Origin: Anaerolineae bacterium
Lineage (GTDB): Bacteria > Chloroflexota > Anaerolineae > S140-20
Assembly (NCBI GenBank): GCA_027021705.1
Contig: JALUTT010000073.1
Span: 29,535-93,534 of the forward strand
Length of the DNA: 64,000 nt
Direction of reading: 5' to 3'
This document shows positions 12,270 through 48,395 of the stretch, in pieces (the first letter of the stretch is position 1; every line of letters begins with the position of its first letter). Position numbers and translations under genes: made by a program. Under the pieces are notes generated by a model. That model ran no database searches and had not been told where the DNA came from. It saw only the letters and a program-made list of their open reading frames with translations.

Positions 12270-12374
12270 AGCACTCGCCTCTCGTCAGGCACGGGGACGA
12301 GTACAGAGGTCCAGCGGTAAGTCCCTGCCTCAATTGTACTTGCCCCTTTCAAGGGCGTCAAGGCCCCGTCGCCC

Positions 12375-12526
12375 TGTGATTACCCATATCTTTGGAGATA
12401 GGGAGACGAGCCGTCCACGAATGGGACACGAATACACGAATTAAGGACCGCCTCATTCGTGCATTGGTGAGAAATTCGTGGACGGCCTGCTACGGACCAC
12501 TCTCTCGCTCACTTGTGGGTAATCAC
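12375..12526. mobile_element. MITE-like palindromic element A, copy 1 (152 bp; TIR GTGATTACCCA / TGGGTAATCAC)
   Basis: Terminal inverted repeats plus internal inverted repeats (GCCGTCCACGAAT / ATTCGTGGACGGC) and a CACGAAT x3 core. Flanked by a 13-15-bp direct repeat, GCCCCGTCGCCCT(G), at 12363-12376 and 12528-12541, consistent with a target-site duplication. Confidence 0.7.
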
Positions 12527-12550
12527 CGCCCCGTCGCCCTGTCCTACTGC

Positions 12551-13856: not shown

Positions 13857-13929
13857 TCCTCACGTATCACGCATCACGCATCACGCATCACGCATCACGC
13901 CTCACGCCTCACGCACCACGCACCACCCC
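13857..13929. repeat. Heptanucleotide tandem array A, (NTCACGY)x~10
   Basis: ctcacgt atcacgc x4 ctcacgc x2 accacgc accacc, directly upstream of the purA start. Same unit as the arrays at 43804-43908 (inverted) and 44371-44497. Confidence 0.8.
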
Positions 13930-20483: not shown

Positions 20484-23400
20484 TTACGGCCACCAGCGGC
20501 CTACATCTTGGATGGCCTGGAAGGTCCCGACAATGGCCTCTGGTCCGCCCAGGGCGTAGATAAGGGGGGCGAGGGCGCTCAGGTCGGAGAGGAGGTCCCG
20601 GCGGGTGCGCCGGGCGAGTGTGTGGAGCGTCTCCCGCCAGAGATCGTGGACGGCGTTTCGGTTCCGCTTTGCCCAGTTGGCCAAAGGGGAGGCCAGTGCC
20701 GAGAGCATCTTTCCCCGGGCACGGGTGTTCTCAACGTCCCGGGCGATCCTCAAAGTCTCCTTCAGGTCTTCTCTCGGGAGCATCTGCGGCAGGGAGGAGG
20801 CCAACTCTTCCAGTGCTTCGGCCTGTCTCTCAGCGTCCTTCTCCTCTCGCAGCGCGTCCAGAGCGTTCCGCAGAGCGTGTTCCTGCTCCGGCTCCGGCAG
20901 GTGGGGGATCAGACGGGCCAGAACCTGAACCCGCCGGGTCGGCCGGACGATCTCCTCCGTGGCCATCATAGCCTCTAGGAGTGCCTGCCTCCGTAGCGCT
21001 TCCGGCGGATGGAACAAGGCCAGTTCCCGAAGTTCCTCGGCTCGCGTGGCCGCATCGGAGATCCCTCGGATCGTGGAGAGGGCCTCCAGCCAGCGGCCTT
21101 GTCCTGCCATAAGGCGTGCAATGGCCCTCAACACGCGATCGAACTGCCTCCTGGACCCATTGCCCCGAAGCGTTGGGGCAGCCCTCGCGACTTCCCATAG
21201 CATGGTCTCCCACGGGGAAAAGGCCGGTTCCTCTCCCATTTCCCAGAGTATTTGCTGCCGTAGGGCCGCAGGAAGGTAGGAGAGGTGAAGCAGTTCCCAC
21301 ACCACAGAGGCTTGGATCCAAGGGTCCTCAATCCCTCGTGCCGCTTCCCACGCTTCCCATAGGGCCTCTTCCCGTTGCGGAGGGGGCAGGTGGGCGGCCA
21401 ACACCCGCAGAGTCTGGGCTCGCAGACTCTTGTCCTCGATCTCCCCCGCCGCCGACAGAGCTTTCTGCTGGACACCTTCTCGCAGCGTCGCCTCCGGGAA
21501 GTTGTGAGAGAGCAATCTTAGCAGGGCGTCAGCTTGCTGCCATGGGTCCTCGATCTGCGAGGCCGTTTCCACAGCTTCCTGCAGGGCCTCCTGTTGTCGT
21601 GGCTTCGACTCCTGCTGTTGTGACTCCGACTCCTGTTGTCGTGGCTCTGAGAGGTGGAGAGCCAGTTGCGCCAGCAGGTTGACCCGTAGGTAGGGGTCCT
21701 GGACGTTCCGGGTGGCTTGCCAGGCGTTCTGAAGGGCCTTTTCGCGATCCTGGGCTGAGAGATGGGGGGCAATGTCGGCCAGAGTCTGTGCCCGCCGGTA
21801 CTCGTTGGTGATTTCGCGGGCTGCGGCCAGGGCCTCCTGGAGGGCCGCCCCCCGCTCCCCCCCCGCCAAGTGACGGGCCAGCTCGATCAACGTCCTGGCT
21901 TGTGCACCCCTATCCCCGATGCCCTGGACGGTTGCCAGAGCCTCTTGGAGAGCCCGCTTGCGGGGGGATGGCGGCAAGCGAGGAGCCAGTTCCAGGAGCA
22001 CCTCCACCCGTGTCCGGGGGTCTCGGACCTCCCGGGCCGCCGTCAACGCCTCCCGGAGGACTTGTTGCCGTGCCGATTTCGACAAGTAGTAGGAGGTAGC
22101 CAGGTGCAAGAGCGTGCGGGCCCGAACCGGCGCGTCCCGAATCTGCCGCGCTGCGACCAGCGCTTCCGTGATGTAACCCTGTCTCGCCAGGCGCCGGACT
22201 TGGGTCTGGGGTAGCTCGACAGGCATCGTCCTTCTCCGAAGCACCGAGGCGGCTTTCTGGATCGCTTGCAAAGCTTGCTCTTCCCACTTCGGTGGGAGGT
22301 GATGGCTCAGCGCCAGGAGGGTCTCTATCCGAAGATGGGCATCTTGAATGCGCTGCGCTGCTGCCAAGGCCTCTAGACTCCGGCCCTGCTGCGCCAGACC
22401 CAATGCCCGGTCCCTGAACTCCTCATCCTGCGGGTTGCCCTCGCGGAGATCCCGGGCGGCTGCCAGCGCTTCCTCCAGGACAGGGGCGTACTGGGATGCC
22501 GGCAGATACTCGATCAGGCTGAGCAGGGCTCCGGCGCGGATCCGAGCATCCCGGATCGTTCGCGCCACGTCCAACGCCTCGCGCAGCAGCGTCTCCGGGA
22601 GGTAGGGGGCCAGGGAGGCCAGGGCCTGAGCCCGTTGCTCCTCCCGCTCGATTCCCCGGGCGGCTGTCAGCGCTTCCCGGACGGCCCGTTCTCGCTGCTC
22701 GTCCGATACGTAAGAGCAGGAAGCAAGAGCCAGAAAAGCCTCGACCTGCTCTTTGGCATCGCGGGTATTCCGAGCTACGGCCCAGGCTCGTGCTAATAAG
22801 CGCTGCTTCCACGTTTCGTTCGGCAGGTGGGGAACCAGATCCAACAGGGCTGCTACCTGATCTGGGCCTTTTCGGATACTCCTCACAGCCCTGCTCGCTT
22901 CGTGCCAGTCTCCCTGCTCGGCCCAGTGTCGGGCCAGCATCTTCAACACGTTATCCTCTAAGCTCTCTGTCTCCTGTACGGCCGCCTGTGCAACTTGTAC
23001 CGCCTTGGCTCGCAACGCTTCCGACAGGTGAGGAAACAGGTCTGCAAGCGTCCGGATCCGTATCTCCACTCTCTCGATGTTGCTGGCTATGCTCAGGGCC
23101 TCTTCCTGCAGTGCTTCCGGCGAATGGGGAGCCAGGGTTCTGAGGATTGCGGCCTTCCATTCCTCCTCCTCAATCGCCCTCACCGTGGATAGGGCCTCCT
23201 GCCAGAGGGATTCCCGTTCCGACTCGGTTAGAGCGGGACAGGTTGCGATCTCCCGAAGTGCCTGGATCCGATCCTCGGGCCATAGAATCCCTTGGGTGGC
23301 TTTCCGGGCTTTCTTCACGGCTTCTCCCTGTTGCCTATCTGGCAGGTGGGGAATCAGCTTTACGAGCGCTGACACGCGCTCTCGTTCGTCGGCAATCCGC

Positions 23401-26153
23401 GATGTTGCTTCCAACACCTCCTGCAGAGTTTGCTCCCGCTCCGGTTCGGGCATATAAGGAGCTAGGCCGGCGAGGGCCTTGATCCGGTCATCCCTGTCCT
23501 CAATCTGCCTGGCTATGGTCCATGCCCCTTGGAGTAAGGTCTCGTCCCTCTCGAGAGAAGGAGCCAGCCCGGCGAGGGCTTCTGCCCGGACCTCGGTCCA
23601 TTCGATCTGCTGAACGACCGCTAGTGCCTTTGAGAAGAGGTCTTGGGACAGATGGGGGGCCAGCTTCACCAGTGCCTCCGCCCGTTGCCCCGCGTCCGGC
23701 GCCTGCCGGGCGTAGGCCAGCCCTTGGGCCGGAGGCCACTCCTTTTTCTCCACCAGTGCCGCCAGCAGTTGTGGGGGGATGTTCTTGGCCAGGCTGTTGA
23801 GGGAGGCAGTGATGAGGGCGTAGCGGCATTGGAGGGCGATGTCCTCACCCCTCTCCCCGGCCCCCTCCCCTCTCCCACCCGGTGAGAGAGGGGAGGGGGT
23901 GGCGGCGGCCGCTGTCGGGGGTTCTTCCACCAGCCCCCAGGCTCGCGCCACGTCGGTCAGGAAGCCGTCGGTGTCTCCCACGGCCTCCTTAGTCGCGTAC
24001 CAGGCGTTCTCGTGCCGGCGGCGCTGGTGGGTCCGCTTCTGGCCCGGAAGTTGGCCAGGCCGCTCCTTCGGCCCAGGGCAGGTGTAGGGCACCTCCTCTT
24101 CATGCACCCATTCCACCCGCAACAGGCGATGCAGGTCCTCCCCCCGGCCCGCCCCTTCCAAGTGGGCCGCCAGGTGGCGCAGGCCGTAGCCGCCGTCCAG
24201 GTCCCGCCTCCCCGGCTCCCGCAGCCCCGGCAGCCCCGCCTCTAGCCCGCTCCAGGCCGCCAGGTACCGGTCGGCGATGCGGGCGTGGGCCTGCTGCGTG
24301 GCCGCCGCCAGCTCCTCCGTCAGGCTCCGCTCCACCTCCGTCAGCCGCTCTAGGTCGGCCCGCCCGTCCAGGAACTCCCGCAGGCTGGCGTGGTAGAGGC
24401 GGTAGCGGCGGTCCCCTGCGGTGCCCTCCACGGCCAGGAAGGGCCGCCAGGCCTCCCGCAGTAACCGCTCCAGATCAGGCCGCACCTCCACCCCGGCCAG
24501 GGTGCAGAGCCGAGGGAAGGGGAGGGCCTCTTGGGCGGCGGCCAGGGTGCTCAGCAGAGGGAGGTAGTCGGTGTACCATCGGGGATCATCCCGCCACCGA
24601 CTCCAGTACTGGGCGTAGTACTGCCACACGCCCTCCGGCAGGGTCGCCAGGTCCAGGGGGGAGCGCTCCCCGCGCTCGATCTCGCCCACCACGTAGTGCA
24701 GGTAGATCCACACCCCCCGGCATTTCTCCAGCAGCGCGGCCACGAACTGCTCCCGCGCATACCCCTGCTCGGCCAGGGCCCGGGCCACCCCCGACCAGGT
24801 GGCGGCCGCCTCCAGGTAGGCCCGCATATCGGCCCGGTTCTTCTCGCTCTGGGCTTCCAGGCGAAAGACCCGGCGCGGCCCCTCCACCCGCAGCGTCACC
24901 GCCACCGGCCGCTGGGAGATGATGAGGTAGACGCCTTGGGGGAGCACGCGCGGCAAGCCCAGGACGTTCTGGCCCGGCGGGGTTCCGGCCTCGTCCAGGC
25001 CGTCCACCACCAGGACGATTTGCTCTCCGGGCCGCACCTCGTCCCGCTTGCGGGCCGCCTCGAAGAGCAGGTTCAGGAGGAAGTGGGGGCGGGCTGCCGA
25101 GCCGGGCAGCACCCCCTCGGCCTGATGGGGGTCGAGCAGCCAGGCCCGCACCAATTGGGCGGCCAGGTTGCGTAGGCCGGTGGCGTCGTCACCGGGGGCC
25201 AGTTCCACGAAGTGGTGGATGTACCCCTGGGTCTTCACCAGGTGGGCCAGGAAGGTGGTCTTGCCCAACCCGGCGGCGGCTTCCAGGACGAACAGACCCC
25301 GGTCGTTATCCCGCAGGAAGGCGTCCACCTCGGCGGTCAGCCACTCCCGGCCCACGAAGCGGTCCAGCTTCACCCGCTCGAAGACGGACCAAGGGGGGAT
25401 GTAGGCGTCCCGCAGCCGCTCGTAATCACCGACGAAGACCCGGTTGTGGTCGCCGGTGATGAGGATGCTATGGATGGCCTGGCCGCCGATGGAGATGCTG
25501 CACTCACCGGAGGGTTCCTCGGGCTTCTCCGGCGGGTGCAGTTCCAGAGGCTCCGGGCACAGGGCCTGCACCGTCTCGGCGGGGATGGCGTAGGCGTAGC
25601 GTACTCTGGGAGCATCCTCTTCCTCAGGACGCCTCATATCGCGGTAACGGGTGATCATCCCGACCACGCGCCCGGTGACGATGTCCAGCACCGGCGCGCC
25701 GCTGAGGCCCCTGTCCACTTCAGGTCCCTGGACCTGGAGTAGGCGGATGGGCCAGCCTTGCACCGGCACCAGCCCACCGATCTTCGCCTGGGGCCAGCGG
25801 GCGAGCGCAGGGCCGTCCGCCGGGTAGCCCAGGGCCTGGTAGGGATGGCCGTTGCTCCCGTGGGCCGGGCCCAAGGTGGCGGGGTGTGTTCCTTCGGGCA
25901 ACACCCCAACCACCCGCAGGAAGGCCACATCCTTCTCCGGTTGCCAGCCCTTGGGGAGGACCTCGGCCTCCGCCGGTTCACCTCCAACGTGGAAGGCAAG
26001 CCGCACCCGCTTGCCCGGGCAGGCTCCGGCGGCCTCGACCACGTGCACGCAGGTCACCACCAGGTCCGGGCGCACGAGAAAGCCGGTGCCTATCGTCCGG
26101 CCCCTGGCGTTTTCGACGCGGACAACGCAAGCCTCCAGATCCGTTGCTTCCAC
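20484..26153 (-). CDS. Giant tripartite protein: N-terminal trypsin-like Ser protease (S1 fold) - STAND/NACHT-like P-loop NTPase - ~1000-aa HEAT/PBS-lyase-like repeat array
   Basis: 1889 aa, GTG start. Protease triad in chymotrypsin order: His in DLVVTCVHVV, Asp in EKDVAFLRV, Ser in GLSGAPVLD (aa ~1-200; nt ~25554-26153). NTPase: Walker A EAAAGLGKTTFLAHL (~nt 25270), Walker B QIVLVVDGLDEAG (~nt 25030), then winged-helix-like region. About 30 tandem ~31-aa repeats of the form A(R/L)xIxDxxxRaxALaxLAPHLP...ALqEAL, from aa ~800 to the end (nt ~20484-23750). Confidence 0.85.
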   Translation of the reverse strand: MEATDLEACVVRVENARGRTIGTGFLVRPDLVVTCVHVVEAAGACPGKRVRLAFHVGGEPAEAEVLPKGWQPEKDVAFLRVVGVLPEGTHPATLGPAHGSNGHPYQALGYPADGPALARWPQAKIGGLVPVQGWPIRLLQVQGPEVDRGLSGAPVLDIVTGRVVGMITRYRDMRRPEEEDAPRVRYAYAIPAETVQALCPEPLELHPPEKPEEPSGECSISIGGQAIHSILITGDHNRVFVGDYERLRDAYIPPWSVFERVKLDRFVGREWLTAEVDAFLRDNDRGLFVLEAAAGLGKTTFLAHLVKTQGYIHHFVELAPGDDATGLRNLAAQLVRAWLLDPHQAEGVLPGSAARPHFLLNLLFEAARKRDEVRPGEQIVLVVDGLDEAGTPPGQNVLGLPRVLPQGVYLIISQRPVAVTLRVEGPRRVFRLEAQSEKNRADMRAYLEAAATWSGVARALAEQGYAREQFVAALLEKCRGVWIYLHYVVGEIERGERSPLDLATLPEGVWQYYAQYWSRWRDDPRWYTDYLPLLSTLAAAQEALPFPRLCTLAGVEVRPDLERLLREAWRPFLAVEGTAGDRRYRLYHASLREFLDGRADLERLTEVERSLTEELAAATQQAHARIADRYLAAWSGLEAGLPGLREPGRRDLDGGYGLRHLAAHLEGAGRGEDLHRLLRVEWVHEEEVPYTCPGPKERPGQLPGQKRTHQRRRHENAWYATKEAVGDTDGFLTDVARAWGLVEEPPTAAAATPSPLSPGGRGEGAGERGEDIALQCRYALITASLNSLAKNIPPQLLAALVEKKEWPPAQGLAYARQAPDAGQRAEALVKLAPHLSQDLFSKALAVVQQIEWTEVRAEALAGLAPSLERDETLLQGAWTIARQIEDRDDRIKALAGLAPYMPEPEREQTLQEVLEATSRIADERERVSALVKLIPHLPDRQQGEAVKKARKATQGILWPEDRIQALREIATCPALTESERESLWQEALSTVRAIEEEEWKAAILRTLAPHSPEALQEEALSIASNIERVEIRIRTLADLFPHLSEALRAKAVQVAQAAVQETESLEDNVLKMLARHWAEQGDWHEASRAVRSIRKGPDQVAALLDLVPHLPNETWKQRLLARAWAVARNTRDAKEQVEAFLALASCSYVSDEQRERAVREALTAARGIEREEQRAQALASLAPYLPETLLREALDVARTIRDARIRAGALLSLIEYLPASQYAPVLEEALAAARDLREGNPQDEEFRDRALGLAQQGRSLEALAAAQRIQDAHLRIETLLALSHHLPPKWEEQALQAIQKAASVLRRRTMPVELPQTQVRRLARQGYITEALVAARQIRDAPVRARTLLHLATSYYLSKSARQQVLREALTAAREVRDPRTRVEVLLELAPRLPPSPRKRALQEALATVQGIGDRGAQARTLIELARHLAGGERGAALQEALAAAREITNEYRRAQTLADIAPHLSAQDREKALQNAWQATRNVQDPYLRVNLLAQLALHLSEPRQQESESQQQESKPRQQEALQEAVETASQIEDPWQQADALLRLLSHNFPEATLREGVQQKALSAAGEIEDKSLRAQTLRVLAAHLPPPQREEALWEAWEAARGIEDPWIQASVVWELLHLSYLPAALRQQILWEMGEEPAFSPWETMLWEVARAAPTLRGNGSRRQFDRVLRAIARLMAGQGRWLEALSTIRGISDAATRAEELRELALFHPPEALRRQALLEAMMATEEIVRPTRRVQVLARLIPHLPEPEQEHALRNALDALREEKDAERQAEALEELASSLPQMLPREDLKETLRIARDVENTRARGKMLSALASPLANWAKRNRNAVHDLWRETLHTLARRTRRDLLSDLSALAPLIYALGGPEAIVGTFQAIQDVGRWWP

Positions 26154-26496
26154 CGCTCAACCCTATCCCTTGTTTTGTCCGTGCTGTCTCAAAAGCATTG
26201 ATGAGCTTATGCCGCATTTGCGCAATGATCGGCTCCTCATCTGCTCCAGATCATCGGAGAACACCGCGCCTTTTGGGGGAGGGAGGAGGATGTGGGCAAC
26301 TAAGCTGACGGACAAGGGGCTCTTTCCAGGAATGCCTTCCCGCGCATCCTGGATGGCGCCATCACTCCTGTCATCGGCCATTGTATGACAACTGGTCAGA
26401 AAAGTCAAGGAATTTACGCAACAACACAGTACAAATCCCCCAAGATACGCGATGCGCAATACGTGTCACACAATGCGACGCGACACGATTTCCCCG

Positions 26497-26647
26497 GTGA
26501 TTACCCATATCTTTGGAGATAGGGAAACGAGCCGTCCACGAATGGGGCACGAATACACGAATCAAGGACCGCCTCATTCGTGCATTTGTGAGAAATTCGT
26601 GGACGGCCTGCTACGGACCACTCTCTCGCTCCCTTGTGGGTAATCAC
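26497..26647. mobile_element. MITE-like palindromic element A, copy 2 (151 bp)
   Basis: About 95% identical to copy 1. Flanked by a 9-bp direct repeat CGATTTCCC (26486-26494 and 26650-26658). It lies between the giant gene's upstream leader and the divergent FtsK-like gene. Confidence 0.7.
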
Positions 26648-26751
26648 CGCGATTTCCCTCTTGACACAGAACAAATGTTCTGGTATCATGTAGCCAGCCC
26701 CTTCCACCGCGTGACAGGCAACCCGCCATACGCATCGCCCGAGGTGTTCCG

Positions 26752-38187: not shown

Positions 38188-38499
38188 CGCACGCACTGAC
38201 TTGACATGATGGATTATGGGTTATCACCGATCTCGTTGACTTGCGCGACACGATTTCGGGTGGGATGCCACAGGGCTCTCGTCATAGCATCATCATAGGT
38301 GTGGTCATAGGTCTCCTCTAGCCTGGAGGTGGCTTGGCAGTCGGCCTGTCGCCTGTCGTTCCCCAGGCGAGGCCGATCTCTGAACTATGTATGCGCAGTT
38401 TCCGGGTTGCTGCCGATCTCCTGGCTGCCAGGCTTCGTTTCGTGTTGGGCCTAGCGCCGGTCAGGGATGGCAATGGTGTCTCCTAGGAGAGGAAGCACG

Positions 38500-42239: not shown

Positions 42240-43796
42240 CTATTCCCACTCGATGGTGGCCGGCGGCTTGCTGGTGATGTCGTAGACCACCCGGTTGACG
42301 CCGGCCACCTCGTTCACAATCCGGTTGCTCACCCGGGCCAGCAGTTCCAGGTCCAGCCGCGCCCAGTCGGCAGTCATAAAGTCCTCCGTCGTCACAGCCC
42401 GCAGGGCGACGGTGTAGCCGTAGGTCCGCTCATCGCCCATCACCCCTACGCTGCGCACGGGTAGCAGGACGGCAAAGGCTTGCTGGGTCGCCTCCCGCAG
42501 CAGTCCCGCCGCCTCCAGTTCCTCCAGGAAGATGGCGTCGGCCTGGCGCAGCATGGCCAGCCGCTCTTCCGTCACCTCCCCCAGGATGCGGACGGCCAGC
42601 CCCGGCCCCGGGAAGGGCTGCCGCCAGAGGATCTCCGGGGGCAACCCCAGCGCCTCCCCCACCGCCCGCACCTCATCCTTGAAGAGGTAGCGCAACGGCT
42701 CGATCAGTTCAAAGGCCATCTCCTCCGGCAGCCCCCCCACGTTGTGATGGGTCTTGATGCGAGCCGCGCTCTGCCGCTCCGGCCCCCGGCTCTCGATCAC
42801 GTCGGGGTAGAGGGTCCCCTGGGCCAGGAAGCGGAAATGGCCCAACCGGCGGGCCTGCTCCTCGAAGAGCCGGATGAAGGTCTCTCCGATGATCCGGCGC
42901 TTGGCCTCCGGGTCGGTCACGCCCCGCAGGGCCTCTAGGAAGGTGCGGCGGGCGTCTACCGCCACCAGCTCCATCCCCATCCCTTCGCGGAAGGTGCGCA
43001 CCACCTGGGCCGGCTCCCCTTGCCGCAGGAGGCCGGTGTCCACGAAGACGCTGACCAGCCGGTCTCCGATGGCCCGGTGGACGAGGGCGGCTGTGACCGC
43101 CGAGTCCACGCCGCCGCTGAGGGCGCAGAGGACCCGGTCCCGCTCCCCCACCCGCTCCCGGATGGCGGCGATCTGCTGCTCGACAATGTTGCCCGGCGTC
43201 CAGGTGGGCCGACAGCCGCAGACCTGCAGGGCGAAGTTGCGCAGCATCACGCCCCCGTGGGGGGTGTGGACGACTTCGGGGTGGAACTGGACAGCGTAGA
43301 GCCCCCGGTGGGGATCGCCCATCGCCGCTACAGGCGAGTTGACCGTCCGGGCCAGGACCTGGAAGCCGGGGGGCAGCCGCTCCACCCGGTCGCCGTGGGA
43401 CATCCAGACGGGCAGGCCCTCAGCCGGGGCGGGGAGGCCGGTGAAGAGCGGGGCCTCGGGCTCGACGACGGTCAGCCGGGCGGGACCGTACTCCCGTTGC
43501 CGGGCCGGGGCCACCCTTCCCCCCAGGGCCTGGGCCAGCAACTGCATCCCGTAGCAGATGCCCAGGACCGGCCGGCCGGAGGCGAGGACGTAGTCGGGCA
43601 AGGTGGGCGCCTCGGGGGCGTAGACGCTGGCCGGCCCCCCGGAGAGGATGAAGCCCCGGGGGCGCAGGGCCAGCACCTCCTCGGCCGGCGCATCCCAGGG
43701 GAAGAGCTCGCAGTAGACCTGGGCCTCGCGCACCCGCCGGACGATGAGCTGACTGGTCTGGGAACCGAAGTCGAGAACGATAAGGGTATTGGGCAT
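42240..43796 (-). CDS. guaA: GMP synthase (glutamine-hydrolysing)
   Basis: GATase [26 protein letters not shown]; ATP-PPase SGGVDSAV; C-terminal dimerisation domain ...PATIEWE. Confidence 0.95.
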
Positions 43797-43803
43797 GGTT
43801 GCA

Positions 43804-43908
43804 GTGAGGTGTGAGGTGTAAAACGTAAGGTGTGAAACGTGAAATGTGAAACGTGAAACGTGAGGCGTGAAACGTGAAGCGTGAGGTGTGGAACGTGAAA
43901 CGTAAGGC
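43804..43908. repeat. Heptanucleotide tandem array B, (GTGARRY)x~15; inverted relative to arrays A and C
   Basis: gtgaggt gtgaggt gtaaaac gtaaggt gtgaaac gtgaaat gtgaaac gtgaaac gtgaggc gtgaaac gtgaagc gtgaggt gtggaac gtgaaac gtaaggc. It ends 2 nt before the stop of the four-helix-bundle gene. Confidence 0.8.
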
Positions 43909-43909
43909 G

Positions 43910-44383
43910 TTACTCCAGTCGGTAGGTGATCTCAGCTTCGCGCAAGGGGCGTCCCCGTTGCTGAGGGATCATCGTCAGCAGCAGTCGGATAATCTCGCTG
44001 AGCAGCGTCAGCCGGTGTTCGAGGATCTCATCTCCCAAGACGTAACGGGCTTTGAAGTACCAATCACGGCTCTCGCGGGCCGACCCCAGAGCGTACTCGT
44101 AAAAGCGTGCGCGATCTCTGCCCGTGCCACGCGAATATCCTTCCGCCAGGTTGGCGCTGATGGAGCCCACCGCCCGGTATAGCTGGTCGGCCAAGGCTCT
44201 CGTCCGCCGGTCCCCGATCAGCCGAGTGACGTCCCGCCACCCCAGGTCACCCAGAAACAGGGCCCGCCTGTACGCCTGCATCCTCCAAAGCGAATCTTTC
44301 TTGATCGCTGCCGGCACCTGGGCCTCCCACTCGGCGTATGTTCTCCAAACGCTGTTCACCTCCTCCCTCCTTTCACGCCTCAC
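43910..44383 (-). CDS. Four-helix-bundle protein (TIGR02436 / 23S rRNA-IVS-protein family; Avd-like)
   Basis: Core ...[24 protein letters not shown]...[44 protein letters not shown]... matches the family signature (I/LAEG, ALGS). The annotated GTG start lies inside heptamer array C, so the true start may be an internal codon (e.g. near MQAYRR). Confidence 0.7.
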
Positions 44384-44497
44384 GCCTTACGTTTCACGCT
44401 TCACGTTTCACGCCTCACGCCTCACGCCTTACGTTTCACGCTTCACGTTTCATGCCTCACGCTTCACACCTCACGCCTCACGCTTCACGCCTCACAT
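44371..44497. repeat. Heptanucleotide tandem array C, (YTCACGY)x~18
   Basis: ttcacgc ctcacgc cttacgt ttcacgc ttcacgt ttcacgc ctcacgc ... It spans the intergenic region and overlaps the 5' end of the four-helix-bundle ORF and the last codons of the GT4 gene. Confidence 0.8.
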
Positions 44498-45665
44498 TTT
44501 CCGCCCCCATCTCCCGATAAACCCCTACCAGCTTCTCCTGAGCCATTTGCCAAGTGAACTCCCGGCGCACCCGCTGGTAGGCCGCTTCGGCCAGCTGGTC
44601 GGCCAAGGCCGGGTCGTCCAGGAGGCGGAGCACCACGCGGGCCAGGTCGCTGGGGTCATCGGGGGTGAAGAGGAGGGCATCCACACCCTCCCGCATCAGT
44701 TCGCGCACGACGGGGAGGTTGGCGGCCACCACGGGCCGGCGGCAGGCCATATACTCCAGCAGCTTGATGGGGCTGCACCCCTGGGTGACGTTGCGGTCGT
44801 TGTAGCCCAGCGGAGCCAGGCAGATGGTGGCCCGGTTGATGAGGTCGGGGATCTGATCGGGAGGCAGTGGCCCTTCCAGGCTCACCCAGTCGGCCAGCCC
44901 CTGCTTGCGAATCCGCCGGCGCAGCATCTTGAGGCGGACCTTGCGCCCCCCGCCGACGATGCGCAGCCGGACGGGGCGCTCGGCCAGGATGTGGGGCATC
45001 GCGTCCAGCGCCGTCTCCACCCCTTGCCAGGAGGCCAACGTCCCCACGTAGAGCAGGGTCGGCGGCTCCGTGGGCTCGACGGGCCGGGGGGCGAAGCGGG
45101 TTGGGTCCACGCCGTTGGGGATGACGACGATGCGCTCCGGGGGGATGCCCAGGCTGCGGATGTACTCCCGGGTCACCCGGCTGGGGCAGAGGATCCGGTC
45201 GGCCCGGTGGAGGGTGAAGACCTCCTGCTGGCGCAGCTTCTCCAGGAGAGGCTGGTGGCGCAGGGCCGGGTAGTGGTACTTGAGCTCGATGCTGGGAAGG
45301 CCGTTGACCTCGTAGATCGTCCGGTAGGGGGGGCGCCGTCCATCACCGGCCCGGACGGCCGGCAGCCCGCTCCAGATGGAGCGGAAGTGCACCACGGCGT
45401 AACCGGGGTGGGTCGCCAGATGACGGGCCACCATCTCGGAGAAGGCCATCGCCCGCCGCAGGAAGTTCGTGTCTTGGGAATGGAAGCGCCAGATGCGTGC
45501 GCCTTCGTAGGTCCCTTCGGCAGGAAGGCCAGGCGTGCCGGCCGTCAGGAGATGGACCTCATAGCCGGCCTGAACCAGCCCCCGCACGAAGTAGGTGATG
45601 TGGGTGCTGGCTCCCTTGGGACTGGGCACGACATCGAACGCGGCGTAGAGGACCGTTGGGTTCAT
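44478..45665 (-). CDS. Glycosyltransferase family 4
   Basis: N-terminus MNPTVLYAAFDVVPSPKGASTHI..., C-terminal GT4 region. The last residues (NVRREA*) are encoded by heptamer array C. Confidence 0.8.
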   Translation of the reverse strand: MNPTVLYAAFDVVPSPKGASTHITYFVRGLVQAGYEVHLLTAGTPGLPAEGTYEGARIWRFHSQDTNFLRRAMAFSEMVARHLATHPGYAVVHFRSIWSGLPAVRAGDGRRPPYRTIYEVNGLPSIELKYHYPALRHQPLLEKLRQQEVFTLHRADRILCPSRVTREYIRSLGIPPERIVVIPNGVDPTRFAPRPVEPTEPPTLLYVGTLASWQGVETALDAMPHILAERPVRLRIVGGGRKVRLKMLRRRIRKQGLADWVSLEGPLPPDQIPDLINRATICLAPLGYNDRNVTQGCSPIKLLEYMACRRPVVAANLPVVRELMREGVDALLFTPDDPSDLARVVLRLLDDPALADQLAEAAYQRVRREFTWQMAQEKLVGVYREMGAENVRREA

Positions 45666-45722: not shown

Positions 45723-48395
45723 TCACGGGGCTTCCTCCAGCAGCCCGTAGAGACGGTCCAGGGCGGTGCGCAGGACCGGACGCGGCGGCCATTCCATCAG
45801 GGCCTCCTCCAGGGCGACCAGGGCGTCGGGCAGGGCAGTCCGGTCCTGGTCCATCGCAATGGCCTCTTCCAGGAGGGCCAGCCCCTTCGTCTCCTCCCCC
45901 CGCAGGAGCCAGAAGTAGGCCCGGTAGAACTGGTGCGAGGCCTGACGGGGGCTGGTTCCCCACTCGCGCTCCCCGTGCTCGATGGCCCGCTGGTAGGATT
46001 CCAGGGCTTCGTCCTGACGGCCCGCCTTCTCCAGCACGATCCCCCGGTAGGCCCAGGCCCAGCTCCGGTTGGGGATCAGGCGCAGCACCTGCTCCAGACT
46101 CTCCAGCGCTTCGTCGTAGCGCCCCATCAGGGCCAGCACCCGGCCCCGCCCCTCCCAGGGCCAGTAAGAGTCCGGTTCCAGGTGAAGGCGGTGGTCGAAG
46201 GCGTCCAGGGCCTCCTGCAGGCGGCCGGCCATGCGCAGCGCGTTCCCCAACTGGCTCCAGGCCCATCCCCAAGAGGGGGCGAGTTCGGTCACCCGCTGGA
46301 AAGCCTCGGCCGCTTCGGGATACCGCTTCATCGCCGCCAGGGCTTCCCCTTTGCTGGCCCACACCCAGTCGGCGTCCGGCGTCAGGGCCAGCGCCCGGTC
46401 GAAGGCCTCCAGGGCTTCCTGGTAGCGTCGGGCGAAGCGAAGGGTCTCCCCCAGTTGGGCCCAAGCCCAGGCGTACTGGGGCTTGAGCTCCAGGGCGCGG
46501 TGGAGGGCGTCCAACGCTTCGTCGTAGCGTCCCAATTGCTGGAGGGTGCGCCCCAGGTGGGCCCACCCCCAGGCGTAGTCGGGGAGCAGCTCCAGCGCCC
46601 GCTGAAAGGCGTGGCGGGCGTCGGCCGGCCGATCGGCCAGGCGCAGGGTCTCCCCCAGTTGGGCCCAGGCCCAGCCGTACTCCTCGTCCAGGTGGATGGC
46701 CCGCTGGAAGGCGGCGATGGCCTCATCGAAGCGGCGGAGCTGGAGCAGCGCCTGCCCTTTGCTGGCCCAGGCCCAGGCGTAGTCGGGGTCAATCTCCAGG
46801 GCGCGGTCGAAGGCATCCAGCGCCCCCTCGGGGCGTTCGGAGAGCCGGAGCGCCTCCCCCAGGTGGGCCCAGGCCCATTCATAGGCTTCGTCCAGCTCCA
46901 CAGCCCGTCGAAAGGCGGCGATGGCCTCGTCGAAACGGTCCAGCAGGGCCAGGGTCTCCCCCTTGCTGGCCCAGGCCCAGGCGTAGTCGGGCAGCAGTTC
47001 CAACGCCCGGTTGAAGGCGTCCAGGGCCCTCTCGAGATCGCGGCTCAGCCGGAGGGTCTCCCCCAGTTGGGCCCAGGCCCAGCCGTAGTCGGGGGCGATC
47101 TCCAGGGCCCGCTCCAGAGAGGCACGGGCGGCATCGTAGTAACCCATCCGGCGCTGGAGGGCCCCCTGTCGGGCCCAGGCCCAGGCGTAGTCGGGGGCTG
47201 CGGTGACCGCCCGGTCGAAGGCGGAGAGGGCATCCTCGTAGGCTCCCTGGTCTCGGAGCGTCTCGGCCATCCGTCCCCAGGCCCAGGCGTACTCGGGATC
47301 AAGCCGGACGGCCTGCTGGAAGTCGGCGAGGGCCTCATCGTAGCGTTGCATCTGGTGGAAGGCTTCGCCCCGGCTGGCCCAGGCCCAGGCATCCTCGGGG
47401 TCCGCGTCCAGCACCCGGCTGAGGACGTTGACCGCTTCGGGCAGCCGCTCGGCCAGGCGCAGGGCTTCCCCCAGGTGGGCCAGCGCCCACTGGTAGTCGG
47501 GGTCCAGGGCGACGGCCCGCTCCAGAGCGGAGACCGCCTCGTCGTACCGCTCCAGGTCAATCAGCGTCACCCCCAGGTGGGCCCAGGCCCACTCGTAGTC
47601 CGGGTCCAGGGTCACCGCCCGCCGGAAGGCACGGCGTGCTTTCTTCGCCTGTCCGTGGAGGCGGTAGGCCTCGCCCAGGCTGCCCCAGGCCCAGGCGTAT
47701 TGGGGGTCCAGTTCGACGGCCCGCTTCAGGACGGGGATGGCTTCCTCGAAGCGGTTCAACTGGTTGAGGACCTCTCCCAGCCGGCCCAAGGCCCAACTGT
47801 AGTCGGGGTTGAGGGCTACGGCCTGCTCAAAGGCTTCTCGGGCTTCCTCGTAGTTGCGCTGGAGGCGCAGGACCTCGCCCTTGTGGGCCCATGCCCAGGC
47901 GTACTCGGGGTCCAGGGCCAGGGCCCGATCGAAGGCGGCCAGAGCCTCTTCGGGCTGTCCCGACCGGGCGTGGGTCTCCCCCAAGCTGCCCCAGACCCAC
48001 GCGATGTCGGGCTGCAGGTCAATGGCCTGGTACAGGTCGGCCAGGGCGTGTTCCAGGTGGTTTAGGAGGAGGTAGGTCTCGCCCCGGTGGGCCAGGGCCC
48101 AGGCATAGTCGGGCATCAGGGCCAGGGCCCGGTTGAAGGCGATGAGGGCATCCTCAAGGCGACCCAGGGCCAGCAGGGCCTCGCCCTTGTGGGCCCAGGC
48201 CCAGGCCGACCCTGGTACCAAGGCGATGAGTTCTTCGAAAGTGGACAGGGCGTCTTCCAGGCGTCCCTCTTCTCGCAGCCGGTGTCCCTCTTGGGCCAGA
48301 TAGGCGGCGGTCTCCGGCAGCGGGCCTGCTGACGGCTCCCAACCCGCAGCTTCATCCTCTACGATCCGTCCCTGGTGAGAAGGTTTCTCCGCCAT
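45723..48395 (-). CDS. TPR-repeat protein (about 25 tandem tetratricopeptide repeats)
   Basis: 890 aa of 34-aa repeats with consensus AWAWahkGEaLrllgRyeEAlaafdRAlaLdPdy. Confidence 0.85.
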   Translation of the reverse strand: MAEKPSHQGRIVEDEAAGWEPSAGPLPETAAYLAQEGHRLREEGRLEDALSTFEELIALVPGSAWAWAHKGEALLALGRLEDALIAFNRALALMPDYAWALAHRGETYLLLNHLEHALADLYQAIDLQPDIAWVWGSLGETHARSGQPEEALAAFDRALALDPEYAWAWAHKGEVLRLQRNYEEAREAFEQAVALNPDYSWALGRLGEVLNQLNRFEEAIPVLKRAVELDPQYAWAWGSLGEAYRLHGQAKKARRAFRRAVTLDPDYEWAWAHLGVTLIDLERYDEAVSALERAVALDPDYQWALAHLGEALRLAERLPEAVNVLSRVLDADPEDAWAWASRGEAFHQMQRYDEALADFQQAVRLDPEYAWAWGRMAETLRDQGAYEDALSAFDRAVTAAPDYAWAWARQGALQRRMGYYDAARASLERALEIAPDYGWAWAQLGETLRLSRDLERALDAFNRALELLPDYAWAWASKGETLALLDRFDEAIAAFRRAVELDEAYEWAWAHLGEALRLSERPEGALDAFDRALEIDPDYAWAWASKGQALLQLRRFDEAIAAFQRAIHLDEEYGWAWAQLGETLRLADRPADARHAFQRALELLPDYAWGWAHLGRTLQQLGRYDEALDALHRALELKPQYAWAWAQLGETLRFARRYQEALEAFDRALALTPDADWVWASKGEALAAMKRYPEAAEAFQRVTELAPSWGWAWSQLGNALRMAGRLQEALDAFDHRLHLEPDSYWPWEGRGRVLALMGRYDEALESLEQVLRLIPNRSWAWAYRGIVLEKAGRQDEALESYQRAIEHGEREWGTSPRQASHQFYRAYFWLLRGEETKGLALLEEAIAMDQDRTALPDALVALEEALMEWPPRPVLRTALDRLYGLLEEAP

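Follow-up and report, generated by a model that had tools for sequence, protein, structure and literature searches.

A four-helix-bundle gene between inverted heptanucleotide arrays in an Anaerolineae gene cluster: a recurrent cassette with likeness to 23S rRNA intervening sequences

Gene and array layout of the locus

We analyzed a stretch of 64,000 nucleotides from an Anaerolineae contig (JALUTT010000073.1), referred to below as the window, with a focus on a small four-helix-bundle (4HB) gene of the PF05635/TIGR02436 family that lies between two inverted arrays of a 7-nt unit, in the gap between the genes for a GT4 glycosyltransferase and GMP synthase. The array-gene-array element is called the cassette, and its two arrays are called arms. 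The features of the locus and of the array found elsewhere in the window are as follows.

44371..44497, minus strand: upstream (5') arm, about 18 tandem units GTGARRC (equivalent to CGTGARR), read on the strand of the gene
43804..43912, minus strand: downstream (3') arm, about 15 units GYYTCAC (NNNNACG type), read on the strand of the gene
44360..44373, minus strand: ribosome-binding site, purine-rich AAAGGAGGGAGGAG, with its GGAGG core 6 nt before the GTG
43910..44359, minus strand: 4HB gene, PF05635/TIGR02436, 149 aa, GTG start at 44359, TAA stop at 43910-43912
44478..45665, minus strand: GT4 glycosyltransferase gene, the upstream host gene
42240..43796, minus strand: guaA (GMP synthase), the downstream host gene, in the same direction as the 4HB gene
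13860..13929, minus strand: solo array, CGTGRTG/CGTGAGG on the purA strand, 9 CGT units, without an inverted partner
45723-48395, minus strand: gene for a tetratricopeptide repeat (TPR) protein of 890 aa, first in the transcription order TPR, GT4, 4HB, guaA

Tandem Repeats Finder recovered all three arrays with a period of 7 nt, at 43804-43908 (GTGARRY, ~15 units, reported in several rows), at 44373-44495 (TCACGCC, 17.6 copies, with a super-period of 42 nt repeated 2.8 times), and at 13860-13926 (TCACGCA, 9.6 copies). A search of the window for three consecutive TCACGYY units, with two mismatches tolerated, returned 33 matches, all of them at the three arrays, compared to 0.01 expected from shuffled sequences. 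A previous sequence-only reading of this DNA had described 7-mer arrays at three loci, two of them in opposite orientation around the 4HB gene, and both searches bear this out. The arrays at 43804 and 44371 are mutually inverted, the downstream arm being the reverse complement of the upstream arm. Overall, the arms measure 107-126 nt and are 76-78% complementary, and the best arm pair extends over 126 nt at 76% complementarity with 426 nt between its halves.

The cassette occupies the whole intergenic gap between the GT4 gene and guaA. The stop codon of the GT4 gene is located 19 nt within the upstream arm, and the last six codons and the TGA (44478-44497) are encoded by the array, as the sequence-only reading had stated; the resulting C-terminal tail is NVRREA*, and an orthologue that is 95% identical has a different tail. 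Within the upstream arm, TGA is found in all three frames inside any 21 nt. The arm terminates at the Shine-Dalgarno site (AAAGGAGGGAGGAG) of the 4HB gene, the TAA stop of that gene is the first triplet of the downstream arm, and the downstream arm is separated from the ATG of guaA by 7 nt.

The solo array at 13860-13929 separates the stop codon of an M20 peptidase gene from the Shine-Dalgarno site of purA. Comparison of the window with Rfam yielded no family match for the arrays, no riboswitch upstream of purA or guaA, no rRNA, and one tRNA only. The two host genes preceded by arrays in the window, purA and guaA, represent the first steps of the AMP and GMP branches from IMP. This pairing is probably a coincidence, as the neighbors of the arrays elsewhere are unrelated to purine metabolism.

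Start codon and properties of the 4HB protein

A longer open reading frame (ORF) can be drawn from a GTG at 44383 within the array (MRRERREE...), and the sequence-only reading had placed the start and first codons of the gene there. The GTG at 44359 is preceded by AAAGGAGG with a 6-nt spacer, gene callers in three other assemblies reported a protein of 149 aa, and the N-termini of 27 homologues align at this codon (MNYxEWE). Based on the GGAGG 6 nt upstream, the 149-aa calls, and the homologue N-termini, we concluded that the functional start is almost certainly GTG 44359, downstream of the array, which displaces the array-encoded start. Five aligned alleles keep the ribosome-binding site and the start codon with one or two substitutions, despite the varying array, and a Shine-Dalgarno-like site precedes the 4HB start in 59 of 82 loci.

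The protein matches PF05635 with 52.7 bits (cut-off 33.8) and TIGR02436 with 63.7 bits (cut-off 24). AlphaFold modeled it (pLDDT 90.3) as a four-helix bundle preceded by a short extension at the N-terminus. The best structures in a Foldseek search were BT_0352 (2RLD) and XCC0516 (2GSC), with a target-normalized TM score of 0.88, a root-mean-square deviation of 1.7-2.1 Å, and 21-26% identity, and a profile search of the Protein Data Bank sequences also retrieved 2GSC (E = 1.4e-5). The Avd-like four-helix bundle proposed from the letters alone is thus corroborated by both the family matches and the fold. The family motif has been given as GxxRxxxSxxxNxxE (PMC3936711), and its R-x3-S-x3-N-x2-E part is present here; in a set of 28 homologues, S, N, and E never vary and most sequences have the R, and approximately one third of all residues are invariant. 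The dN/dS ratio against close alleles is 0.05-0.16, and the 4HB protein is under purifying selection. It has no match in the PADLOC and PHROGs libraries, and no nuclease or recombinase motif was identified in it. Clustering of its relatives at 90% identity gives more than 6,700 clusters, with many of the genes on contigs of ~1 kb, and 1,482 clusters at 50% identity match the protein.

The fold brings in diversity-generating retroelements (DGRs), whose accessory protein Avd is a four-helix bundle, and the sequence-only reading had pointed to such a link while finding no reverse transcriptase nearby. The 4HB gene would then be a DGR remnant or an Avd whose partner reverse transcriptase is encoded elsewhere. 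Avd in the DGR ribonucleoprotein (4DWL, 8UB7) matches our model with a TM score of ~0.80, and PF05635 is the Pfam family most often found beside DGR reverse transcriptases (PMC10053308). The likeness of fold therefore stands, but a closer relation to Avd does not, since the identity to Avd is 11-12% compared to 21-26% for the group of 23S rRNA intervening-sequence (IVS) or S23 proteins. No reverse transcriptase was found among the window ORFs that were checked, and a YxDD-like motif occurs in three of them, which encode a sugar transferase, a NosD/beta-helix protein, and GTP cyclohydrolase I. There is also no direct repeat in the window that resembles a template repeat and variable repeat (TR/VR) pair, as the repeats of at least 50 nt are TPR units, the heptamer arrays, and a three-copy MITE (miniature inverted-repeat transposable element). 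Unlike a DGR, the 4HB gene has no adjacent reverse transcriptase, TR, or VR, and inverted short-period arrays around the gene are not a DGR feature. All annotated neighbors in the other loci are housekeeping operon genes. We regard a DGR origin of the cassette as extremely unlikely.

Recurrence of the cassette across genomes

A scan of one genome per GTDB species confirmed at least 410 relatives of the 4HB gene among the 599 candidate stretches examined, and the best 80, which are 63-74% identical, were kept. The closest relatives of the window are Chloroflexota metagenome-assembled genomes (MAGs). Besides Chloroflexota, the record labels include Rhodothermales, Bacteroidetes, Ignavibacterium, Poribacteria, Verrucomicrobia, Binatia, Acidobacteria, Latescibacterota, and Pseudomonadota, about ten phyla in all.

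Period-7 arrays surround nearly all of the best 80 loci. Using a detector for chains of CGT or ACG at 7-nt spacing with at least three units, we found a CGT chain upstream in 66 of 82 loci, an ACG chain downstream in 66 of 82, and both in 54, compared to 30 of 1,188 background windows. Inverted arms with an ungapped score of at least 12 were present at 63 of 74 loci and at 1 of 137 controls shifted by 1.5 kb. The arms have a median length of 27 nt (range 12-152 nt), so that the 107 nt of the window are among the longest. Within the unit, CGT is constant, and the remaining four bases vary between cassettes, even inside one genome, as in CGTGAAA, CGTAAAA, CGTCAAA, CGTGATG, and CGTATTG. The two arms of a cassette covary (unit similarity 0.60 within a pair versus 0.45 across loci, p = 3e-13), and cassettes with more similar units also tend to have more identical proteins (Mantel r = 0.38, p = 0.0005). 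The suggestion that the inverted arrays are the arms of a small cassette is upheld by the same architecture in 80 other genomes, and array-gene-array is very probably a conserved cassette architecture. It is apparently undescribed so far: in the searchable literature, mostly without subscription journals, we found no paper that links PF05635/TIGR02436 to flanking tandem arrays.

The cassette is probably an acquired insertion rather than an ancestral component of the loci in which it is found. None of 80 guaA loci retrieved in a metagenome scan at 59-73% identity carries it, and one of them has an empty hairpin in that place (L140, described below). On this ground, the insertion upstream of guaA is lineage-specific; with all loci at most 73% identical, the scan gives absence at the level of the lineage. 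GT4 orthologues at 67-69% identity have no synteny with guaA, so that no empty site can be defined.

One genome (locus L042, 482-965) has a second 4HB cassette 1.6 kb upstream of the first, with arms of the same CGTAAAA type and a query match in two frames. It is probably a frameshifted pseudogene, and it is the sole decayed copy among ~85. Several Chloroflexota loci (L002, L017, L064, and L072; e.g., L064 1180-1225 and L072 4263-4589) contain heptamer arrays unrelated to CGTNNNN, including GGAGATT/AATCTCC, ATTGGAG, and CTCTGAC in 18.6 copies, in some cases as inverted pairs placed back to back. Hairpins built of short-period arrays may be a more general trait of such genomes.

Position of the cassette in host operons

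Where orientation could be called, the upstream neighbor is co-directional with the 4HB gene in 40 loci and opposed in 1, and the downstream neighbor is co-directional in 46 and opposed in 6. At 23 of 59 loci, the array contains the stop codon of the upstream gene, and at ~21 more the stop codon is no further than 5 nt from the array. Operon partners split by a cassette include the two halves of an ABC exporter, CoxS/CoxL-type 2Fe-2S and molybdopterin subunits, and MoxR/DUF58. Cassettes of a distant subfamily are found between KdtA and LpxK, in a pentose-phosphate cluster, and between HisRS and AspRS.

In an Anaerolineae MAG (L037, ~2380-2480), a 4HB cassette directly follows CRISPR-like repeats (GTGCTCAAACCCTAACAGGGATTGAAAC, present twice with one spacer), and a second 4HB gene, 45% identical and with 8-nt arms, lies 600 nt upstream of the first cassette. 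This context agrees with earlier reports of 23S_rRNA_IVP genes in CRISPR-cas loci, where they were described as wedged in cas operons, e.g., between cmr3 and cmr2, with no mention of flanking repeats (PMC3936711). Downstream of guaA, locus L088 (10668-10907; same genome as the window) carries a 79-aa gene annotated as PF14407 (Frankia_peptide), which adjoins a response regulator and a histidine kinase.

Copy number variation of the arrays

The cassette upstream of guaA is present in other assemblies at 90-100% nucleotide identity, and the number of units in its arms differs between them, as counted in short-read metagenome assemblies.

L086: upstream arm ~7 units; downstream arm ~16 units
L081: upstream arm ~11 units; downstream arm at least 8 units, the contig ending in the array
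L088: upstream arm ~12 units, otherwise identical to the window minus exactly 42 nt (6 units); downstream arm ~15 units
Window: upstream arm ~18 units; downstream arm ~15 units
L087: upstream arm at least 35 units, the contig starting in the array; downstream arm ~11 units

The solo array before purA likewise has 6, 9, 12, 16, or 17 units in contigs with an identical PurA protein (among loci L174-L178). In L174, there is no array upstream of purA, and a 1,493-aa gene with SACS/NOV_C domains ends at the purA ribosome-binding site. In L086, a NUDIX gene replaces the GT4 gene, and the 4HB gene sequence is identical to that of L081; the NUDIX tail in this strain (VKREA*) is array-encoded up to the next TGA.

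A length polymorphism of the arrays had been proposed as a check for a phase-variable contingency switch, in which slippage by 7 nt would turn the 4HB gene or its neighbors on and off. The polymorphism is there: whole units vary between near-identical strains, in the cassette arms as well as in the purA array, in the manner of the contingency loci of Haemophilus and Neisseria with their short tandem repeats, high slippage rates, and strain-specific copy numbers. However, contingency repeats lie within a coding region or a promoter spacer, whereas the arrays in the window lie outside the 4HB coding region and are rich in stop codons. Slippage is unable to shift the 4HB frame because the ribosome-binding site and start are downstream of the array and constant in all five alleles, whatever the copy number; a start codon in that position is what the sequence-only reading had itself named as a refutation. 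It is equally unable to switch the GT4 gene on or off because TGA recurs every 7 nt, with a stop in each frame within 21 nt, so that the upstream gene alters a few tail residues only. No promoter-like site was found in or beside the arrays. The organisms that carry the cassette are environmental Chloroflexota and other free-living bacteria, and the genes on either side have housekeeping roles rather than surface or restriction functions. Frameshift switching is thus largely refuted. The arrays do abut ribosome-binding sites, and stem length or spacing could tune expression quantitatively, but as an explanation of the cassette we consider a contingency switch very unlikely.

Empty hairpins, solo arms, and 8-nt subfamilies

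Array hairpins are also found without the gene. Gene-free arm-loop-arm structures lie between co-directional genes in several loci (L023, L062, L067, L040, L020, and L004), and solo arms stand directly before ribosome-binding sites in L019, L061, and others. In an unrelated lineage whose guaA is 63% identical to that of the window, an empty hairpin fills the site between the upstream stop codon and the guaA start (L140, 2425-2490), the same guaA-upstream site that holds the loaded cassette in the window. It reads CGTGAGG CGTGGAG CGTGAAG, a 4-nt loop, and CCTCACG CCCGACG TTCCACG CCCTACG, i.e., three CGTGARG units followed by four NNNNACG units.

The inverted layout reaches beyond the heptamer subfamily, with a unit that changes along with the protein subfamily. 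The paralogue of L037, 45% identical, has 8-nt arms with GCGAATCA in 10 copies upstream and GATTCGTT in 3.8 copies downstream. The arms of a very distant paralogue (L045) are likewise built of 8-nt units, and two relatives of the latter carry AATGRGTC upstream and CATTGACT downstream (L170) or GGAAATTA in 4 copies upstream and CCAATTTC in 10 copies downstream (L172). A weaker form, with AAYNGGKC-type units and 20-nt arms that are 75% complementary, is found in L171.

Two alternative explanations take the repeats as their starting point. According to the first, the arrays are generic intergenic heptanucleotide microsatellites or leader elements that would serve the host in translation or mRNA stability, and the 4HB gene has no more than a tendency to land within or beside them. 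Solo arrays directly upstream of the ribosome-binding sites of ordinary genes (purA and several other loci) would fit this picture, as would the other heptamer families, such as GGAGATT, in the same loci. Tandem units of this kind are known as short tandemly repeated repetitive (STRR) sequences in heterocystous cyanobacteria, with the consensus units CCCCAGT, TTGGTCA, and CAACAGT; the units of the window, CGTGARR/TCACGYY, are different. The TAACTGA repeats of Beggiatoaceae are mostly in forward orientation just upstream of start codons (PMC4679880). Like the arrays described here, STRR and TAACTGA are intergenic tandem 7-nt units, often upstream of start codons and variable in number, but they have other units and taxa and have been described as direct repeats only, with no inverted pairing around a 4HB gene reported in the literature consulted. 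The association with the 4HB gene is too tight for a chance landing, with chains at 80% of 4HB flanks versus 2.5% of the background and inverted arms at 85% versus 0.7%. Moreover, the arms are mutually inverted in every case, one starting at the upstream stop and the other at the 4HB stop, and the unit length differs between protein subfamilies. Generic repeats are therefore a quite improbable explanation.

According to the second, the cassette is a repeat-and-keeper system at the DNA level, in which the 4HB protein recognizes its own 7- or 8-nt unit and is responsible for making, keeping, or spreading the arrays and hairpins. The empty hairpins and solo arrays would be non-autonomous products, and the stem in the RNA would be incidental. 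The model is the proteobacterial pair of REPINs, hairpin-forming elements named after repetitive extragenic palindromes (REPs), and RAYTs, the REP-associated tyrosine transposases. RAYTs are HUH (IS200/IS605-like) tyrosine transposases, and REPs are single imperfect palindromes. The likeness lies in dispersed hairpin-forming intergenic repeats, in a small gene flanked by its own inverted repeats, and in a long vertical residence instead of transposition bursts. Intergenic sites do hold empty hairpins and solo arrays, and arm mismatches show no sense-strand bias. The unit follows the subfamily (7-nt CGTNNNN versus 8-nt GCGAATCA, AATGRGTC, and GGAAATTA), and its similarity correlates with protein identity, although simple co-inheritance can explain that correlation. 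In contrast to a RAYT, the window gene has PF05635 as its only Pfam match, a four-helix bundle with no known catalytic site or activity and no nuclease or recombinase motif identified; the repeats are tandem 7-8-nt arrays, and a genome holds several diverged 4HB copies. The extra arrays of a locus are not significantly closer to the unit of the resident cassette than to those of other cassettes (0.45 vs 0.38, p = 0.13, n = 14). The strict co-directionality with host genes would be unexpected for a purely DNA-level element. We consider such a keeper system unlikely.

Stem pairing and proposed mechanism

When the RNA of the window cassette was folded, the arms formed a stem of ~100 bp, with a minimum free energy of -350 kcal/mol compared to -279 kcal/mol for shuffled sequence (z = -6.6). 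The reading that we favor, with a probability of roughly 0.55 as the whole explanation, is that the cassette is related to the intervening sequences of 23S rRNA that encode 4HB proteins, but resides in operons. The IVS elements of Leptospira and Coxiella (encoding "S23p") also have a PF05635 ORF in the loop of a stem made of terminal inverted repeats, lie in sense orientation within a host transcription unit without a promoter of their own, and are sporadically distributed. In Coxiella, the 23S IVS measures 428 nt, encodes a protein of the same Pfam family, and has a 28-bp terminal stem that is cut by RNase III, after which the host RNA stays functional (PMC4990558). The cassette differs in lying between the GT4 gene and guaA instead of in helix 9, 25, or 45 of the 23S rRNA, in carrying a strong ribosome-binding site, and in its arms, which are 7-nt tandem arrays of variable copy number that reach more than 100 nt; a processing event here is inferred. 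The Coxiella stem, by comparison, is reportedly a unique 28-bp sequence.

Under the IVS-like reading, the 4HB gene would be transcribed by read-through from the host operon, and the stop-rich upstream arm would terminate the incoming ORF just before the cassette's own ribosome-binding site. The arms could pair in the transcript, in many possible registers, to give a long stem that loops the cassette out, and the duplex would bring both host cistrons together. RNase III might then cut the arm stem as it does in the 23S IVS, releasing the 4HB mRNA and leaving the flanking cistrons usable. We propose RNase III processing as the likeliest function of the arms because the 23S IVS is the nearest experimentally studied relative, and RNA stem processing of this type is a serious possibility, if at somewhat less than even odds. 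The arms would lengthen and shorten by replication slippage. Spread would most likely proceed by insertion or gene conversion into array hairpins, in which case the empty hairpins would be targets that a gene enters by conversion or recombination through the arms; alternatively, they may be derivatives that have lost the gene, as MITEs derive from transposons. The 4HB protein would probably bind the repeat nucleic acid, and that it acts on its own repeats is a tentative proposal.

Several observations weigh against this interpretation. With respect to the RNA stem, arm mismatches are G-U-compatible 79 times in the sense RNA and 101 times in the antisense RNA, and duplex energies are lower for the sense strand at 36 of 75 loci, a non-significant share; these energies were also noisy, with -65 kcal/mol even for shuffled arms. 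Selection on the stem as sense-strand RNA is thus unsupported by either comparison. Since the G-U-compatible mismatches have no sense-strand bias, pairing at the DNA level is equally possible, and the complementarity of the arms could be kept there. With respect to read-through, we found neither a sigma-70-like promoter nor an intrinsic terminator accompanying the 4HB gene on its own strand in the window, but the promoter scan covered sigma-70 consensus sites only and gives weak evidence. For the protein, the authors of the Coxiella study concluded that the IVS-encoded product is probably not made in vivo (PMC4990558).

With respect to mobility, there is no sign of recent transposition, and paralogues of one genome are just 72-77% identical. 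The 4HB copies that are at least 90% identical always share their flanking genes and diverge about as much as these neighbors do; pairs at 82-89% identity mostly stand in unrelated contexts. The GC content of the 4HB gene tracks that of the host (r = 0.73), yet it is 5-10 points lower. No copy was found in 72,556 plasmids, and 2.9 million viral contigs gave one weak match. Finally, all copy numbers come from short-read metagenome assemblies, in which arrays may be collapsed, and the breaks of synteny in L086 and L174, both located right at arrays, could be chimeric joins through the repeat; if it is not chimeric, the L174 break is a genuine rearrangement at the array.

A wider generalization, speculative and rather doubtful, is that 4HB genes with inverted short-period arrays constitute a distinct class of prokaryotic elements of the foldback type that spans phyla. 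Each subfamily would recognize and propagate its own 7- or 8-nt unit, orphan arrays and hairpins (STRR-like and TAACTGA-like) would be non-autonomous derivatives, and the ORF-containing 23S IVS would be the case that landed in rRNA. The Foldback and Galileo transposons (PMC3573991) similarly have long terminal inverted repeats composed of variable short tandem repeats, with a gene that may sit centrally, but they are eukaryotic, kilobase in scale, located outside operons, and encode or need a recognized transposase.

To our knowledge, PF05635/TIGR02436 is a large family with no known function outside DGRs, and we know of no accepted explanation for short-period intergenic tandem repeats such as STRR and TAACTGA. 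The fixed architecture described here, with the gene in the loop of an inverted 7- or 8-nt stem between operon partners, links the family to the repeats, and it supplies a concrete hypothesis for both puzzles, in which RNase III would process the arm duplex and the protein would bind its own unit. It has long been remarked that PF05635 genes are oddly inserted in rRNA genes and in cas operons (PMC4990558, PMC3936711), and the architecture suggests an origin for the intervening sequences of rRNA. There are also practical consequences. The arrays break short-read assemblies, and they mislead gene callers into N-terminal extensions, with ~120-190 aa annotated compared to an actual length of ~145-150 aa.

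Other repeats and ORFs in the window

Upstream of the GT4 gene, the positions 46133-48267 hold ~20 tandem units of 102 nt, 60-75% identical, which encode the 34-residue repeats of the TPR protein and have nothing unusual about them. An ORF of 1,890 aa at 20484-26156 on the minus strand has a trypsin-like peptidase domain at its N-terminus as its sole Pfam match. The MITE-like element of ~155 nt is present in three copies that are 96-98% identical (12372-12529, 26493-26650, and 38072-38190), the third with a 19-nt internal deletion, and at least the first copy is intergenic, directly after purA. Terminal inverted repeats of 12 nt (GGTGATTACCCA / TGGGTAATCACC) bound the element, and an inner pair, also inverted (GCCGTCCACGAAT ... 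ATTCGTGGACGGC), surrounds three CACGAAT motifs.

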